DNA of 12,643 bases from a virus (lineage: Duplodnaviria; Heunggongvirae; Uroviricota; Caudoviricetes), in IMG/VR virus record IMGVR_UViG_2778261064_000023; one strand, written 5' to 3'. A model generated the notes under the pieces. The model made no database searches, was not told the DNA's origin, and was given only the letters and a program-made list of their open reading frames with translations. Shown here in pieces: positions 8,045 through 11,256 of this stretch (its first letter is position 1; every line of letters starts with the position of its first letter). Made by a program: the position numbers and the translations under genes.

Positions 8045-8118
8045 ACGGGTCCTTCCGGAGGGGGGCCTTACCGCGGGGCGACGGACGCGCGGAAAAAGGC
8101 TAATTTTTACATTTTCAT
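8045..8118 (+). other. cos-like site 1: cosQ-like ACGGGTCCTTCCGG, cosN-like GGGGCGACGGACGCGCGG, then AT-rich cosB-like region
   Basis: Resembles the lambda cosQ-cosN region as recalled (ACGGGTCCTTTCCGG ... GGGCGGCGACCTCGCGG); about 180 bp upstream of the TerS-like gene at 8268, as cos precedes Nu1 in lambda. Confidence 0.5.
8066..8100. repeat. 35-bp perfect inverted repeat, left copy (partner at 11197-11231); imperfect match extends to about 8045-8118 / 11179-11256
   Basis: CCTTACCGCGGGGCGACGGACGCGCGGAAAAAGGC is the exact reverse complement of 11197-11231. Confidence 0.9.
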
Positions 8119-8267
8119 CCGTCATCATCATCTTTCCAACATGTTGAATTAAAATGAAATATATTTTAACTATGTTAATTTGGGGTGTTTTTTGTTCAAC
8201 ATACAGAACACTTTTAACCCACTGAAAGATGAGCGCACGATACGCATTTAAAACTACCGGAGGACGA

Positions 8268-8777
8268 ATGGATCGGGAGCTTAAAAACCTGAAACTTAAT
8301 ATCAATCAACTCGCAGAACTGGCGGGAGTTTGCCGCCAGACAGTAGCGAAAAGGCTAAAGGACATTCAGCCAGCCGGAGGGCATGAAAAATTAAAGCTGT
8401 ACCGACTGACGGATATAATCAGCGCATTCATGAATATACCCGCCCCCGCATCACTCGAAGACATGGATCCACAAAGCCGTAAAGCCTGGTACCAGTCTGA
8501 GCGTGAGCGCCTTAAGTTCGAGCAGGAAACGGCTGAACTTATCCCCGCCGTGGATGTGCGCAGGGAGTTGGTTATTTTTGGGAAAATCTTAAGCGAGGAA
8601 CTGGCAAAACTCCCCGACATTCTGGCGCACGATGCAGGCATCAATCAGAACGCAGTAAACCGCGTCAGGCAGATTATTGATGACCTGTGCAGGCAAATTA
8701 CTACCAGAGTGATACAGGCTAACGACTGGCACGACAGCACGCCGCAGGTAGTGCAGGAGATTCACCAGGGGGAATAA
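8268..8777 (+). CDS. TerS-like wHTH protein (Nu1-type N-terminal DNA-binding domain); candidate PICI packaging-redirection (Rpp-like) protein
   Basis: 169 aa from the ATG at 8268 (GGAGG at a 4-nt spacing); N-terminus LNINQLAELAGVCRQTVAKRLKD...AGGHEKLKLYRLTDIISAF parallels lambda Nu1 as recalled (VNKKQLADIFGASIRTIQNW...RGGGKGNEVLYDSAAVIKWY). Confidence 0.55.
   Translation: MDRELKNLKLNINQLAELAGVCRQTVAKRLKDIQPAGGHEKLKLYRLTDIISAFMNIPAPASLEDMDPQSRKAWYQSERERLKFEQETAELIPAVDVRRELVIFGKILSEELAKLPDILAHDAGINQNAVNRVRQIIDDLCRQITTRVIQANDWHDSTPQVVQEIHQGE
8745..8769 (+). repeat. 25-bp direct repeat CAGGTAGTGCAGGAGATTCACCAGG, copy 1 (3' end of the TerS-like gene)
   Basis: Identical 25-mer at 9121-9145; flanks are similar but imperfect. 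Confidence 0.9.
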
Positions 8778-9069
8778 TTCGCGGTACCGGAAAACATCCA
8801 CCAGCAGGGAACGACAAAAAAATAAAAGCGCACCGCTAAGGATGCGCCTTGATTGAGGTTCAATGAGTAAGACATGCACACACATTGTGTCGCACCTCGT
8901 TCATTCTGGCAATGTATCAGGCTGGTGCGTGCGGTAAGCCTCCAGATTTGCGCAATGGTTCCGCCTGTGATGTTAAGGTTTGTTAAGTTGTTTTGCGCAG
9001 AGATGGGCGGAATAAACATTGATGTAAGCCCCGTAATTACTGGCCTTGCCACGTAAAAACCGCGAACAA

Positions 9070-9084
9070 TGATCAGGTTGATCA
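9070..9084. promoter_or_regulatory. 15-bp perfect palindrome TGATCAGGTTGATCA
   Basis: Read from sequence; lies in the 340-bp segment between the two copies of the 25-bp repeat. Confidence 0.25.
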
Positions 9085-9120
9085 TGCTTAGAAATGCCAG
9101 GGGTATTTGCGCAAAAATGA

Positions 9121-9145
9121 CAGGTAGTGCAGGAGATTCACCAGG
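9121..9145 (+). repeat. 25-bp direct repeat, copy 2; in frame it encodes QVVQEIHQ, so it is a remnant of the 3' end of a TerS-like/Rpp-like gene
   Basis: Identical to 8745-8769; preceded by an in-frame stop, so only the gene tail is present. Confidence 0.85.
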
Positions 9146-9261
9146 TGGAGGATTCGCAACCATTCTCTTTATTTCTCGTCATCACGCTGACCTGTATTCA
9201 GCTGGTTGGTCTGTGGCACATCCCCGGATATTTAATTACACCTTACGGTAGCTATCTCCGG

Positions 9262-9458
9262 CGGGTCCTTCCCGGAACCTTAAGCGCCGGGGGTACGGGT
9301 ACGCGCAATTCTTAACTGTTTATGAAAATTTTTCGGGAAAAGTCAGATCCGTTCTTCTTCTCTGTAACTCATTGTTTAATGGTAAAATCATCAAAAAAAG
9401 AAAGGATCTGACAGTGGTCATTTTGGGCCAAAAATGACGTTATCAGATCCTTTCTCAG
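9262..9458 (+). other. cos-like site 2 with complete lambda-like architecture: cosQ-like, cosN-like, then cosB with three TCAGATCC R-elements (direct, inverted, direct)
   Basis: CGGGTCCTTCCCGG 9262-9275; GGGGGTACGGGTACGCGC 9288-9306; TTTATGAAAATTTTT 9319-9333 (as in lambda); TCAGATCC at 9343-9350, its inverse GGATCTGA at 9404-9411, TCAGATCC at 9443-9450, i.e. about +50, +110, +150 from cosN like lambda R3, R2, R1. Confidence 0.6.
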
Positions 9459-9482
9459 TTTTGTTCAATAATTGCGCGGTTG

Positions 9483-10067
9483 TCACTCACCTTTCTGTTG
9501 CCGTAATTTCTCCGGCACGTTTCCGGTTGTTTCCATCAGGTAGTCTTTCAGAATGCGGGGCAGATTATCGGCAGTTTTGGCGCACGCATTACAGGCCCGT
9601 GCTGTTTCCTTCCTCAGCCCATCGAGCATTGCCGGAGTCATCCCGGGGAACTGCCTTTGCATTGTGAGCGGTAAACTATCCATGATCGAAGAAATCTGAC
9701 TCGCCAGTCCACGAAGCGCATAGAGCACGAACTCAGTATCTGTAACCTCCCCCGTCTCTCTGGCGTTCTTCAGTTCCTGCCCGTCAGCCTGTGCTTTGGT
9801 GAGACGGTAGCGTTCGTACTCTGTTGTGCCTGGCTGTAAATCTGATTCACCAGCAGCACGTAAATCATCAAGCTCCCTGCGGAGTTTTTCGTTTTCGATG
9901 TCCTTCTCCCTTTGTGCATACCATTCGATCACCTGTGCAGAGTCGAAAGTCACTTCCACGCCTTTTCCGCCACCAGATGTATGAGGAAGGCCCAGCGTCT
10001 GCCAGCGTTCAATTGTGCGCGGATCAACGCCGAAAATCTCCGCCAGTCTCTTTTTGTTAACATTCAT
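9483..10067 (-). CDS. terS: Terminase small subunit, lambda Nu1-like
   Basis: 194-aa product [70 protein letters not shown]... is collinear with lambda Nu1 as recalled ([70 protein letters not shown]). Confidence 0.85.
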
Positions 10068-10093
10068 CTATCAAATCCTCATCAAAAACCACC

Positions 10094-10288
10094 TCCGACA
10101 TGAAACGCCAGAAAAACGGGATTTTCCGGTGTTATGGTGTCGTATGTTTATGATAGTTAATTTAAATAAAAACATAATGTTACATGCAAGAAGTACCGAC
10201 ATGCTTTTTCCCTGAAAAATTTTCATAAATAGTGAAAATCTGCGCGTCTGCCGCCCCGTGGTGTTAATGGTTCCGGAAAGGACCCGTG
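10094..10288 (-). other. cos site 3 (minus orientation), immediately upstream of the Nu1-like terS: cosQ, cosN and cosB with two direct CATGTCGG repeats
   Basis: Minus strand reads CACGGGTCCTTTCCGG (plus 10273-10288), then GGGCGGCAGACG (plus 10245-10256), then CGCAGATTTTCACTATTTATGAAAATTTTTC, close to lambda cosQ-cosN-cosB as recalled; CCGACATG at plus 10096-10103 and 10196-10203. Confidence 0.65.
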
Positions 10289-10677
10289 AAAAGTCTCCGC
10301 CCCTGTCCGGCAGTGTAAGAGGTGTTTTTTAGGGAGACCCTTTTCAGCCCATAAAACTGGAAAAATCACGGTTTTTTTAGTCTGCTGGTGGAGTGAGTTT
10401 TTTTAACGATGCCAGTAATGGCGCGGGTTGGGCGTGGTTTTGTCTGATAGGTTTTATCTATCAACTCTGCGCACACCTTCCCAAAAAAAAGTTTTCGATC
10501 CTGCGGCGATGCGAAGAAGGGTTGGTAGGCGGTCCCTGACATCCAGGGCCACAGGGATTTGATCTGCCCCTCCCGTTGATGATAACCGTTATCAATTACT
10601 CCACCAGCCGGCAGGACGGTAACAATACATCGGGCTACCCGTTCCGGTACTGGTTAATCCTGGCTTTCGCAATCAGC

Positions 10678-10715
10678 GTGACGTGATGGTGACATGCCGT
10701 GACACATCGTGACGC
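10678..10715. repeat. Four tandem GTGAC-containing 10-bp units (helically phased); possible protein-binding array
   Basis: GTGACGTGATG GTGACATGCC GTGACACATC GTGACGC read from sequence. Confidence 0.3.
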
Positions 10716-10750
10716 TACCAACAGCACAGGGGAGAACGGCAGAACGCGGG

Positions 10751-10775
10751 TAAAAAAATCCCCGTGATTACGGGG
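10751..10775 (-). terminator. Rho-independent terminator on the minus strand (stem CCCCGT/ACGGGG, loop, then a U-run)
   Basis: Plus strand TAAAAAAATCCCCGTGATTACGGGG; minus strand gives a hairpin followed by a T-rich run; implies a leftward transcript from the ORF-poor region 10776-11190. Confidence 0.5.
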
Positions 10776-11178
10776 CAGAAGGATAATAACCATCAGGAAA
10801 TGTTAGCTACCACAAAGCAAATAACCATGAACAACGATTAAGAGTACGGAGAATAACCGCTCGTTCATGCCGGATAATGCCACCAGGCCAGGAGAATGGC
10901 AATGCACGGACCATAACGCATCGCCACCAGCCTTGTGGGTTATCACGCAGCGGTACCGGGAGTCTGGTATCGTGATGCGGCATGATTCAGTGATAAGCAT
11001 CACCGCTTCCGCTCACATTTGACACTGGCAACTCCATCTGGCAGGTGAAAATCAGATTTATTTATATATTTCAATTGATTGCGAACTGGTCTAATGACAG
11101 GGGAGAAAAAAGATTGTACAGGTGAAAACAGAAATAACTTTTAATTATCAATATATTACTACACATGCTGCCGCCGCC

Positions 11179-11256
11179 ATGAAAATGCAAAAACCAGCCT
11201 TTTTCCGCGCGTCCGTCGCCCCGCGGTAAGGGTACCCATCCAGGAGGACCCGCGAT
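11179..11256 (-). other. cos-like site 4 (minus orientation); inverted partner of site 1
   Basis: Minus strand reads CGCGGGTCCTCCTGG ... CCTTACCGCGGGGCGACGGACGCGCGGAAAAAGGCTGGTTTTTGCATTTTCAT, near-identical to site 1 over about 55 bp. Confidence 0.5.

Follow-up and report, generated by a model that had tools for sequence, protein, structure and literature searches.

The window analysed here, a stretch of 12,643 nucleotides, represents an integrase/primase island of E. coli of about 13 kb that is inserted between cspD/yljB and clpS. Its genes include an integrase (1-1239), an Ash/Icd region, a DUF927 primase, SSB, ProQ and PerC, and we found no structural genes in the island (capsid, tail and large-terminase genes are all absent). 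Its size (the expected range is about 10-15 kb), the single direction of its integrase, regulator and primase/replication module, its lack of lysis and tail genes and its att site agree with those of E. coli cos-type PICIs. Judged from its sequence, the island is thus a PICI satellite, parasitic on phages. Related islands occupy other att sites, at yejO/tRNA-Pro, thiM and yifB. The sole recombinase found is an arm-binding tyrosine integrase at the far left end (1-1239), and neither the island nor the RefSeq annotation of an identical island contains an invertase or an Rci-type recombinase.

The right-hand part of the island carries the following features, with the cos sites and their parts assigned by homology to phage ends:

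8019..8045, + strand: terminator-like stem-loop with a T-run (GAAGCCGGAACACTCCGGCTTTTTTT), after the PerC gene and directly upstream of cos A
8046..8118, + strand: cos A, the left arm; cosQ-like GGGTCCT at 8047-8053, perfect core at 8066-8100, start of cosB up to 8118
8119..11178, no strand: outer invertible segment, between arms A and D
8229..8777, + strand: DUF1441-type small terminase (TerS) gene, full length, downstream of cos A; RefSeq start 8268
9121..9149, + strand: second copy of 8745-8773, the 3' end of the DUF1441 gene; 29-nt direct repeat (D11, 97%), also found as a tblastn remnant
9262..9455, + strand: cos B (site 9262-9341); cosQ at 9263-9269, cosN core, cosB-like region; inverted repeats I1, I5 and I23
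9342..10206, no strand: inner invertible segment, between cos B and cos C, with both cosB regions and the Nu1 terS
9483..10067, - strand: Nu1-type TerS gene, full length, downstream of cos C; Pfam Phage_Nu1, 8e-68
10070..10286, - strand: cos C (site 10207-10286), pointing leftwards; cosQ at 10279-10285, cosN core
10447..10597, - strand: candidate fifth cos-like site of another (HNH-dependent) class; homologous to the phi467-type HNH-endonuclease/terS intergenic region
10990..11037, - strand: remnant of a cdtI-type DUF1441 terS, first 16 codons; tblastn with cdtI gp01 residues 1-16, 75%, E=3.9e-4
11179..11252, - strand: cos D, the right arm, pointing leftwards; cosQ at 11245-11251, perfect core at 11197-11231

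The region is bounded by a long inverted repeat. A sequence-only reading had described it as perfect over 35 bp, and we confirmed that 8066-8100 (CCTTACCGCGGGGCGACGGACGCGCGGAAAAAGGC) and 11197-11231 are exact reverse complements over 35 nt, a length at which chance alone would produce about 7e-14 perfect inverted pairs in 12.6 kb. A repeat search extended the arms to 8066-8118 and 11179-11231 (53 nt, 94% complementary, spacing 3060 nt). Outward of these, weaker similarity with one indel continues up to a common CGGGTCCT box (8046-8053 and 11245-11252). The arrangement recurs in independent complete genomes, four of them at 99.8% identity, and in two metagenome contigs, which excludes an assembly artefact. 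Bracketed by the arms are the DUF1441 TerS-like gene, cos B, the Nu1-type terS, cos C and an ORF-poor stretch (10287-11178). The same reading had placed the whole packaging module inside the repeats, and this holds, with both full-length TerS genes and the inner cos sites enclosed; its list of the contents was right, but it was silent on the arms being cos sites themselves and on the inner cos pair being nested within them. That pair forms a second inverted repeat, I1, of 80 nt and 75% identity.

The cassette contains four nested sites of the lambda family (A+, B+, C- and D-, with A and D as the outer pair), which have CGGGTCCT and a GGGG..ACGCGC core in common. They can be aligned with the physical ends of phage cdtI and of phage 21, the latter carrying annotated cosQ, cosN and cosB. 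In both arms the cosQ motif GGGTCCT (8047-8053 and 11245-11251) lies 22 nt ahead of the predicted cohesive end; the corresponding spacing in lambda is 23 nt. The arms also match bases 1-12 of phage 21, its annotated cosN, and the start of the cdtI record column by column, with cohesive-end sequences of GGGCGACGGACG in the arms, GGGCGGCGACCT in lambda and 21, and GGGCGGGAGCGT in cdtI. The predicted 12-nt cohesive end is at 8076-8087 in cos A, with packaging predicted to run rightwards, and at 11210-11221 in cos D. By similarity, cosB and then terS follow in each arm, A leading to the full DUF1441 terS and D to a cdtI-like terS start. These features indicate that the arms are oppositely oriented lambda-family cos sites, at which a helper terminase would nick and start or stop packaging.

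The cosB sides of the four sites resemble those of different phage lineages. That of A is of the mEp460/PhiR40 type, and the module of cos A plus its gene shares about 70% identity with PhiR40_1, phi458 and mEp460. cos B, of the phi80/SerU-LTIIb type, is about 75% identical to the prophage SerU-LTIIb cos region and about 74% to phi80 bases 25-116, and its cosB-like region has three GATCTGAC-type repeats, up to about 9455; the site points rightwards into the 3' end of the Nu1 gene and has no TerS gene behind it. The cosB of cos C, upstream of Nu1, resembles that of phage 21 (ATGTCGG-type repeats), and 9752-10259 matches phage 21 bases 1-505 at 75% identity, a stretch of that phage with annotated cosN, R3, I1, R2 and R1. 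A cdtI-type cosB extends leftwards from cos D to about 10988, and 10988-11252 matches cdtI bases 1-234 at about 90% identity, the left end of that phage with the terS start included. The candidate fifth site at 10447..10597 matches 11 phages at 75-81% identity; in phi467 the matching stretch falls between the HNH and terS genes.

Sites A and C each precede a complete TerS gene, the arrangement found at phage left ends. The DUF1441 gene matches Pfam DUF1441 (4.7e-35) and PHROG 141, ‘terminase small subunit’ (2.2e-55, profile positions 7-169 of 183), and its product is 35% identical to cdtI gp01, whose gene directly precedes TerL. The Nu1 gene matches PHROG 57 (2.5e-63, profile positions 11-194 of 199) and is 75% identical in DNA to phage 21 gene 1. 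The stretch around the duplicated 3' end of the DUF1441 gene (9083-9162) is kept in islands without a DUF1441 gene, and the duplicate is a scar of cargo turnover in the A-B interval.

Despite their different cosB lineages, the arms share one cosN core. Compared with the cos of four sequenced DUF1441-TerS phages, those that were examined, this core has a different base at 6 of its 12 cohesive-end positions. From island to island the cosQ-side, cosN and cosB-side parts assort independently, with the cosQ side staying with the flank and the cosB side travelling with the segment. Within some islands the sites have become alike: B and C are identical over 73 nt in L018, and in U90, an island of a sibling family, cosN is GGGTAGCCATAC at both sites, whereas HNSQ2209 has two different cosN sequences. 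Arm identity is not fixed in the family, since the outer arms differ in L015, L017 and L021. The cos sites are mosaics that are sometimes homogenised within one island. The earlier suggestion that gene conversion or functional constraint keeps the arms alike is supported by the shared cosN, the lineage-divergent cosB sides and this homogenisation.

We then compared orientations in related islands, which had been proposed as a check for inverted forms. Relative to the same flanks, the outer segment is flipped in A36 (L007), C5 (L008, the same sequence as L029), OkiPb01677 (L009) and an IMG/VR contig (L011), and the hypothetical inverted left junction is matched over its full length in A36. Outer-inverted islands have reciprocal junctions inside the arms, and their segments are 90-95% identical in both orientations between the same flanks. 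The inner segment is flipped relative to the C-D interval in A19, MB06102 and A36, and the inner-inverted junction is present in 3 complete genomes. In a sample of the window and 19 independent related islands, local mapping placed 12 with neither segment inverted, 2 with the inner only, 2 with the outer only and 2 with both. The clearest pair comes from the sibling family, where U90 and HNSQ2209 are 99.5% identical over a 3.6-kb flank and carry a 1.04-kb cos-bounded terS unit, the one that forms the inner segment here, in opposite orientations at 98.1% identity, with both inversion junctions within 105-nt cos overlaps. Altogether, these data, read from consensus assemblies, support inversions between facing cos sites as historical events between islands. 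In the four-cos family, the inner segments of every island in a state other than the window's differ by 4% or more from those of the nearest relative, and so these inversions could be old and few. The proposed inversion is thus borne out, with two nested invertible segments instead of one, and seen between islands only. The earlier reading had set against it a single orientation among relatives, with the arms being simply two cos sites; the arms are cos sites, but both orientations occur.

We consider it likely that the arms are facing cos sites in a nested PICI packaging cassette that inverts by recombination at cos. As the facing sites are alike, recombination within them can invert the DNA that they enclose. 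Most likely, this would proceed by general homologous recombination and gene conversion, through host RecA or helper Red and without a dedicated invertase; by analogy with lambda, terminase double-strand cuts at cosN might stimulate it. The 35-bp core corresponds to the cosN region, and its identity would be maintained by conversion, by the need of both arms to be nicked alike, or by the two together. The cassette may allow several kinds of helper terminase to package the island, its TerS proteins presumably directing helper TerL to the island cos sites.

Could the inversion instead be a programmed, frequent switch of the shufflon or Mu G type, in which flips change the TerS that is co-oriented with the main operon and hence the helper? 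All four isomers exist, and the + + - - cos layout is conserved in every island examined. The co-oriented gene also differs: in the window the DUF1441 gene lies in the direction of the upstream operon with Nu1 antisense, in C5, A19 and MB06102 Nu1 is the co-oriented one, and among the sibling islands three have terS in the direction of the capsid genes, with U90 having it antisense. However, the island has no invertase or Rci-type recombinase gene, and 13 closely related islands from different strains and att sites all have the window's orientation, which is not expected from fast switching. A terminator-like hairpin also separates the operon from cos A (8014-8048 folds at -14.3 kcal/mol, although the hairpin is absent from the consensus scan listing), making read-through expression from the operon doubtful. 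We therefore regard a programmed switch as quite improbable; inversion appears to be sporadic on an evolutionary timescale. A more mechanical possibility is that terminase cuts both facing sites and the 3.1-kb fragment is religated either way without homologous recombination. The cosB sides face inward in both arms, whose predicted cohesive ends (GGGCGACGGACG) are identical, so that the two ends of the fragment would have one and the same 12-nt overhang and those of the backbone its complement, allowing re-annealing in either orientation. Every junction falls within cos sites, and mismatched-overhang repair could account for the homogenised cosN of U90. Yet B and C differ in cosN in many islands, which would leave non-complementary ends, and cosQ-side parts move between arms irrespective of orientation state; in L015 a D-type cosQ side adjoins the left flank in the window's orientation, which requires conversion tracts outside the nick sites. 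Moreover, lambda couples the cutting of cos to packaging, and ends that are cut but left free are open to RecBCD. On balance, cut-and-rejoin seems an unlikely route.

Two further explanations dispense with inversion by recombination at cos. If the arms had been captured independently and the orientations had arisen by separate module assembly, no inversion would be needed at all. The islands are indeed highly mosaic, with nearest relatives that differ by segment and with different A-B cargo, and the B-Nu1-C unit, bounded exactly by its cos sites, also occurs in another island family. Against this account, segments of 90-95% identity lie either way round within identical flanking contexts and have reciprocal junctions at each of the two arms, and it does not explain the common cosN core of the arms, which is missing from the phage lineages that their cosB sides resemble. 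It is further disfavoured by U90 and HNSQ2209, which differ essentially by the flip alone, and we consider it very unlikely. A discrete segment bounded by a 53-bp inverted repeat is also reminiscent of a transposable element with the arms as its terminal inverted repeats. That reading is refuted: there is no transposase gene between the arms, the flanks (GGAGGGGGG and GTACCCATC) show no target-site duplication, the arms share homology with the ends of phage genomes, and the segment was never found outside this island context.

Facing cos sites that recombine, the reading that we favour, have a close structural counterpart in EcCICFT073, which has two cos sites, both shown to be functional, and whose packaging is redirected by Rpp (Fillol-Salom 2018 ISME J, PMC6092414; 2019 Mol Cell, PMC6739421). 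The two islands have a common PICI backbone (int, alpA-type HTH, primase, SSB, PerC) and more than one lambda-type cos with cosQ, cosN and an island-specific cosB. We found that cos1 (+) and cos2 (-) of EcCICFT073 are an inverted pair with a 25-bp perfect core flanking the TerS-like rppA, the same unit architecture as cos B, Nu1 and cos C of the window. They differ in content, EcCICFT073 having two cos sites and no TerS homolog, the window four lambda-type sites, possibly a fifth site of another class, and two full-length TerS genes of two families. Also, the EcCICFT073 cosN is that of its helper, whereas the cosN core of the window's arms matched no phage among 50,697 phage records, IMG/VR or the recognisable prophages of 5,426 E. 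coli genomes. Thus EcCICFT073 also has a facing cos pair, but PMC6092414 and PMC6739421 mention neither the orientation of its sites nor inversion between them. SaPI TerS_S offers another likeness, with a satellite TerS beside its own packaging site and helper TerL packaging the satellite; SaPIs are headful (pac) packagers with a single TerS, unlike the cos-type window island with its two TerS families.

Invertible segments elsewhere provide partial parallels. The Mu G/Gin, P1 C/Cin, Salmonella Hin and R64 shufflon/Rci systems depend on a dedicated recombinase encoded next to them and on specific crossover sites, and their inversion can switch the expressed gene. As in these, short inverted repeats bound an orientation-variable segment, and the shufflon likewise has multiple segments in several arrangements; the window island differs in having no dedicated recombinase and in that its repeats are packaging sites. 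In this respect it is more like herpes simplex virus, where inverted ‘a’ sequences contain cleavage and packaging signals and bound two segments that give four isomers with no dedicated invertase, inversion being attributed to general recombination aided by breaks at the packaging signal. There, however, the segments are adjacent and the isomers equimolar in each stock, whereas here the segments are nested, isomers were seen only between islands and the repeats are far shorter (35-80 bp). Stahl and co-workers reportedly showed in phage crosses that lambda cos is a recombinator in the Red pathway. Such a hotspot, with recombination focused by the terminase cut, would fit both the mosaic cos sites and the junctions within cos, although that evidence concerns phage crosses and its extension to facing cos sites in a satellite, and to inversion, is by analogy.

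A bolder proposal, to which we give little credence, is a recombinase-free ‘packaging shufflon’, in which helper terminase cuts during induction would drive inversion and conversion between facing cos sites. If it were true, the joins between cosB/TerS and the flanks, and the choice of TerS co-oriented with the operon, would be reshuffled, and a clonal island population would keep generating variants suited to different lambdoid helpers. It would then be the satellite equivalent of herpesvirus genome isomerisation, and would explain why PICIs have more than one cos site, a question raised in the literature.

Finally, the two TerS ORFs gave no sign of Rpp-type redirection. In a comparison with solved structures that covered the DUF1441 and Nu1 ORFs, the Nu1 protein, encoded next to cos C, matched lambda TerS (chain 6hn7_B) at 1.5e-38 but RppC at only 0.053, and the DUF1441 protein gave no RppC match. 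As a side observation, the cargo of the A-B interval varies from island to island.

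The 35-bp perfect inverted repeat that the sequence-only reading had placed around the packaging module was borne out: 8066-8100 and 11197-11231 are perfectly reverse-complementary over all 35 nt. The repeat is real, since a perfect inverted pair of this length has a chance expectation of about 7e-14 in 12.6 kb and the structure recurs in independent complete E. coli genomes (four at 99.8% identity) and in two metagenome contigs. A repeat finder extended the arms to 8066-8118 and 11179-11231 (53 nt, 94% complementary, 3060 nt apart), and with one indel their outward similarity reaches a common CGGGTCCT box at 8046-8053 and 11245-11252. 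A second inverted pair, 9262-9341 and 10207-10286 (80 nt, 75%), is nested within the first. Reading the arms as transposon ends was ruled out, as they come with neither a transposase nor a target-site duplication.

We aligned the arms and the inner pair with real phage ends and found the cosQ heptamer GGGTCCT at all four sites, with a cosN core about 22 nt beyond it. This core lines up with bases 1-12 of phage 21, an annotated cohesive end, and with the beginning of the cdtI record. In the arms, cohesive ends are predicted at 8076-8087 and 11210-11221, so that the 35-bp perfect core takes in the 12-nt overhang together with 10 bp ahead of the nick and 13 bp beyond it. On this alignment, the arms are very likely cos sites. 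The four sites are as follows.

Cos sites of the packaging cassette
Site A, 8046-8118 (+): inner (cosB) side nearest PhiR40_1, phi458 and mEp460 (~70%, cos plus gene); followed by a full-length DUF1441 TerS gene
Site B, 9262-9341 (+): nearest prophage SerU-LTIIb (~75%) and phi80 (~74%); no gene after it
Site C, 10207-10286 (-): nearest the phage 21 left end (75%), cosB included; followed by a full-length Nu1 TerS gene
Site D, 11179-11252 (-): nearest cdtI/Tritos bases 1-234 (~90%); followed by the first 16 codons of a terS

The DUF1441 protein encoded after site A hits PHROG 141 (‘terminase small subunit’, 2.2e-55) and shares 35% identity with cdtI gp01, which lies before TerL; we found no relative of it with a solved structure. 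The Nu1 protein encoded after site C matches Pfam Phage_Nu1 (8e-68) and the lambda TerS chain 6hn7_B (1.5e-38). An Rpp identity for the TerS-like genes was rejected, as neither the DUF1441 nor the Nu1 ORF matched Rpp when compared and the Nu1 ORF is a true TerS. Lambda packaging runs from cosN towards cosB and terS. If the same direction is assumed here, all four sites would face the interior of the cassette, with A and B directed to the right and C and D to the left. By analogy to SaPI TerS, the island TerS proteins would recruit the TerL of a helper, and each cos/TerS module may adapt the island to a different helper group. Six islands (L010, L013, L016, L022, L023 and L025 among the loci compared) carry an internal deletion, equivalent to window ~9545-10050, which takes most of the Nu1 terS; they are otherwise collinear and still have the cos site and cosB region on either side, which suggests that retention of the sites does not depend on the gene. 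Since direct repeats would lead to deletion of the DNA between them, duplicated packaging sites of like type are presumably tolerated only when inverted.

Recombination between the arms, it had been proposed, could invert the cassette, and comparison of related islands turned up the inverted configuration. We built the left junction expected from an A×D inversion and searched for it in complete E. coli genomes: it was present at full length and in a single piece in strain A36, and in part in C5 and OkiPb01677. The window's inter-cos segments and a cos profile were also mapped onto 20 related loci, 19 of them independent because L029 duplicates C5. A state could be assigned to the 18 of these 19 that carry the cassette; the other, U90 (L020), belongs to a sibling family with two cos sites. 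The outer segment (8119-11178, between A and D) and the inner segment (9342-10206, between B and C) were found in all four arrangements.

Arrangement of the inter-cos segments in 18 loci
As in the window: L001, L010, L013-L017 and L021-L025 (12 loci)
Inner segment inverted: MB06102 (L018) and A19 (L019)
Outer segment inverted: C5 (L008, same sequence as L029) and OkiPb01677 (L009)
Both segments inverted: A36 (L007) and the IMG/VR contig L011

The site layout + + - - is kept in every island with a complete cassette, except in L009, L019 and L022, deletion variants in which one of the sites is not detectable. In A36, whose segments are 90-95% identical to those of the window, both outer junctions fall within the 74-nt arms and both inner junctions within the inner cos sites. 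A query representing the inner-inverted junction retrieved exactly three complete genomes: A19, A36 and MB06102. About 28 complete genomes carry an island of the four-cos family; two are inner-inverted, two outer-inverted and one both, and ~23 are collinear with the window, of which eight were verified by local mapping and the others inferred from single-strand collinear coverage. Judged from these junctions, the arms have very probably mediated inversion in nature.

Within the four-cos family, we found no near-identical pair of islands differing in orientation, and in the inner segments every island in an inverted state differs from its closest relative by 4% or more. Such a pair does exist in the sibling family, whose islands carry capsid and decoration genes and a single cos-terS-cos unit ~91% identical to window 9260-10292, the match ending exactly at the cos sites. 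U90 and HNSQ2209 (L036) are 99.5% identical over 3.6 kb of left flank and 97.1% identical in the right flank, while the 1,040-bp cos-bounded unit between the flanks (5993-7032 in U90) is 98.1% identical and inverted. Both junctions lie within 105-nt cos overlaps, and by this comparison the pair records a recent inversion event. In another member of this family, L035 (PapRG-04-4), positions 1-2800 show the island adjoining P2-like baseplate and tail-fibre genes, and its insertion site may lie in a prophage or next to one.

When all the sites were compared, their three parts (cosQ side, cosN core and cosB side) proved to assort independently: the cosQ side usually remains beside its flank, and the cosB side moves with the segment. 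A D-type cosQ side beside the left flank of L015, a non-inverted island, calls for short conversion tracts. Paired sites are sometimes homogenised: B and C of MB06102 are identical over 73 nt, and U90 has one cosN (GGGTAGCCATAC) at both of its sites where HNSQ2209 has two different ones. L007, L011 and L018, the inner-inverted islands with both members of the inner pair detected, carry like cosN types at that pair, and most non-inverted islands carry unlike types. Altogether, the arms are of cos type and face each other, natural islands show inversion of the DNA that facing pairs enclose, with its breakpoints in the sites, and the sites exchange sequence; the site patterns fit crossing-over and gene conversion inside the cos sites.

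The island contains no invertase gene, and we think it reasonably likely that inversion proceeds by general homologous recombination at cos. An identity of 35-80 bp is short for RecA and typical for lambda Red, and it is a classical finding that, in the Red pathway, cos acts as a recombinator; when a helper infects, double-strand cuts made by its terminase at cosN would probably stimulate the exchange. Cutting by terminase could also invert the DNA by itself, since the two arms, both facing inward, have an identical overhang and a fragment excised by two cuts could re-anneal either way round. However, conversion tracts outside the nick region and unlike cosN pairs suggest that this cut-and-rejoin route would not be a full explanation. 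Thirteen closely related islands from different strains and att sites all have the window's orientation, which speaks against rapid switching of the phase-variation kind. A programmed switch of helper specificity, though possible, is unsupported, and we consider it very unlikely.

The source of the arm core was sought among phages. The sequenced phages with a DUF1441 TerS (cdtI, HannyBb, PhiR40_1 and phi458) all read GGGCGGGAGCGT at the cohesive-end position, and both arms read GGGCGACGGACG, which differs at 6 of 12 positions; despite the common core, the cosB side of each arm resembles a different lineage of these phages. Searches of IMG/VR with an exact 30-mer, a 20-mer and the cosQ-gap-cosN pattern matched only contigs of 4.3-17.7 kb, none of them phage-sized. 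The best match of a 47-nt query among 50,697 phage records was 82%, and an exact 24-mer had no match in a set of one genome per species. Among 5,426 complete E. coli genomes, a 43-nt query found a near-exact match in only 19, all of them island carriers and mostly with the core at two places per genome. No helper phage with the arms' cosN was thus found in IMG/VR, these phage records or these E. coli genomes. Since the core is unlike that of related phages and confined to island carriers, the perfect identity of the arms is, on these searches, a property of the island lineage and not a relic of two independent captures. This absence from the phages searched, together with the homogenised site pairs, supports the earlier suggestion that gene conversion or functional constraint lies behind the perfect core.

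The interval between cos A and cos B (8119-9261 and its equivalents in L007, L008 and L017-L019) is a cargo hotspot, with the following contents.

Cargo between cos A and cos B
Window: DUF1441 terS
MB06102: F4 fimbrial subunit
C5 and OkiPb01677: S-type pyocin with PAAR, and immunity genes
A36: 786-nt hypothetical ORF
Z1324SEC0014: almost empty

A remnant of the DUF1441 3' end (9083-9162, with a repeat at 9121-9149 copying 8745-8773) persists in islands without the gene. Promoter and terminator scans of 7900-11400 gave nothing above shuffled expectation. A strong minus-strand terminator-like hairpin at 8825-8850 (10-bp stem and T-run), just downstream of the DUF1441 gene, would halt leftward transcripts from the Nu1 side; it lies inside a doubtful 133-aa ORF, 8762-9163 (-), which has no family match.

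The ‘ORF-poor’ interval 10287-11178 is conserved at 90-100% among islands, has no Rfam match, and its small ORFs belong to no Pfam or PHROG family. A structured RNA was rejected there, the only matches of the Rfam search being isrK and C4 at 2732-2917. The right end of the interval consists of the cdtI-type cosB and the terS stub. The best clue to the interval is instead that 10447-10597 within it is 75-81% identical to the region between the HNH endonuclease gene and terS of phi467-type E. coli phages, a region which in HK97-like phages holds the cos site. This stretch is a candidate for a fifth packaging site, belonging to another class and oriented leftwards.

Outside the cassette, the island is organized as follows.

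Other features of the island
1-1239: tyrosine integrase gene
Ash/Icd region, with the isrK and C4 RNAs
2732-2808 (+): isrK Hfq-binding sRNA (Rfam, 80 bits, above gathering threshold)
2830-2917 (+): C4 antisense RNA (Rfam, 75 bits, above gathering threshold)
DUF927 primase, SSB and ProQ genes
7650-7937: first PerC-family transcriptional activator gene, shortly before the packaging cassette
Beyond the cassette: a few small ORFs
12272-12643: the second PerC-family activator gene, at the right end of the window

The Ash/Icd region with its two RNAs constitutes a P1/P4-like immunity module in the regulatory part of the island. Genes for capsid, tail, lysis and large terminase are absent from the window. 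The contig IMGVR_UViG_2802429220_000023 (L012) is as long as the window and differs from it by 15 mismatches, and the 4.1-kb stretch 7600-11700 is 99.8% identical to a chromosomal island of E. coli STEC383 located between cspD/yljB and clpS. Related islands occupy other att sites (yejO/tRNA-Pro, thiM and yifB), sometimes with other integrases or replication genes. PICIs are major carriers of E. coli virulence and defence genes, and their packaging mode determines which phages spread them.

The gene layout of the window is that of the E. coli cos-type PICIs of Fillol-Salom et al. (PMC6092414, PMC6739421). For one of these, EcCICFT073, two functional cos sites were reported, cos1 being used with RppA and deletion of cos2 raising transfer, and the authors raise the question of why two cos sites are present in some PICIs (PMC6092414, PMC6739421). 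These papers and their supplements do not mention cos orientation (PMC6092414, PMC6739421). In the CFT073 genome (L031), cos1 at 12529 (+) and cos2 at 13339 (-) face each other across rppA (12660-13094) with a 25-bp perfect core, so the facing-pair unit is already there in the model island, though unremarked, and facing pairs surround a TerS-like gene in all three island types examined. Unlike EcCICFT073, the four-cos family stacks two facing pairs with four phage specificities and two complete TerS genes, neither TerS-like gene matching Rpp; no phage in the databases searched shares its outer cosN, and it provides comparative proof of inversion.

The window thus bears on the open question of the two sites, the facing arrangement having a visible genetic consequence in segment inversion and site homogenisation. 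The literature covered, which was incomplete, gave no description of inversion between cos sites in PICIs or other satellites, and an earlier one is possible. The herpes simplex virus genome, which isomerises by way of inverted packaging-signal copies, offers the closest conceptual parallel. Gin, Hin and the R64 shufflon have a similar outcome, but the recombinase that defines them is absent from the island. The cassette is a multi-cos PICI packaging module with a nested facing-pair architecture and documented isomerisation. It offers a testable system for asking if terminase cuts rearrange satellite packaging modules and change helper range. Annotation pipelines label such regions ‘hypothetical’ or leave them blank, making multi-cos cassettes invisible in genome records. 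The cos sequences in the text of the EcCICFT073 supplement also differ slightly from the genome, for example GGGTCTTTCC versus GGGTCCTTTCC.
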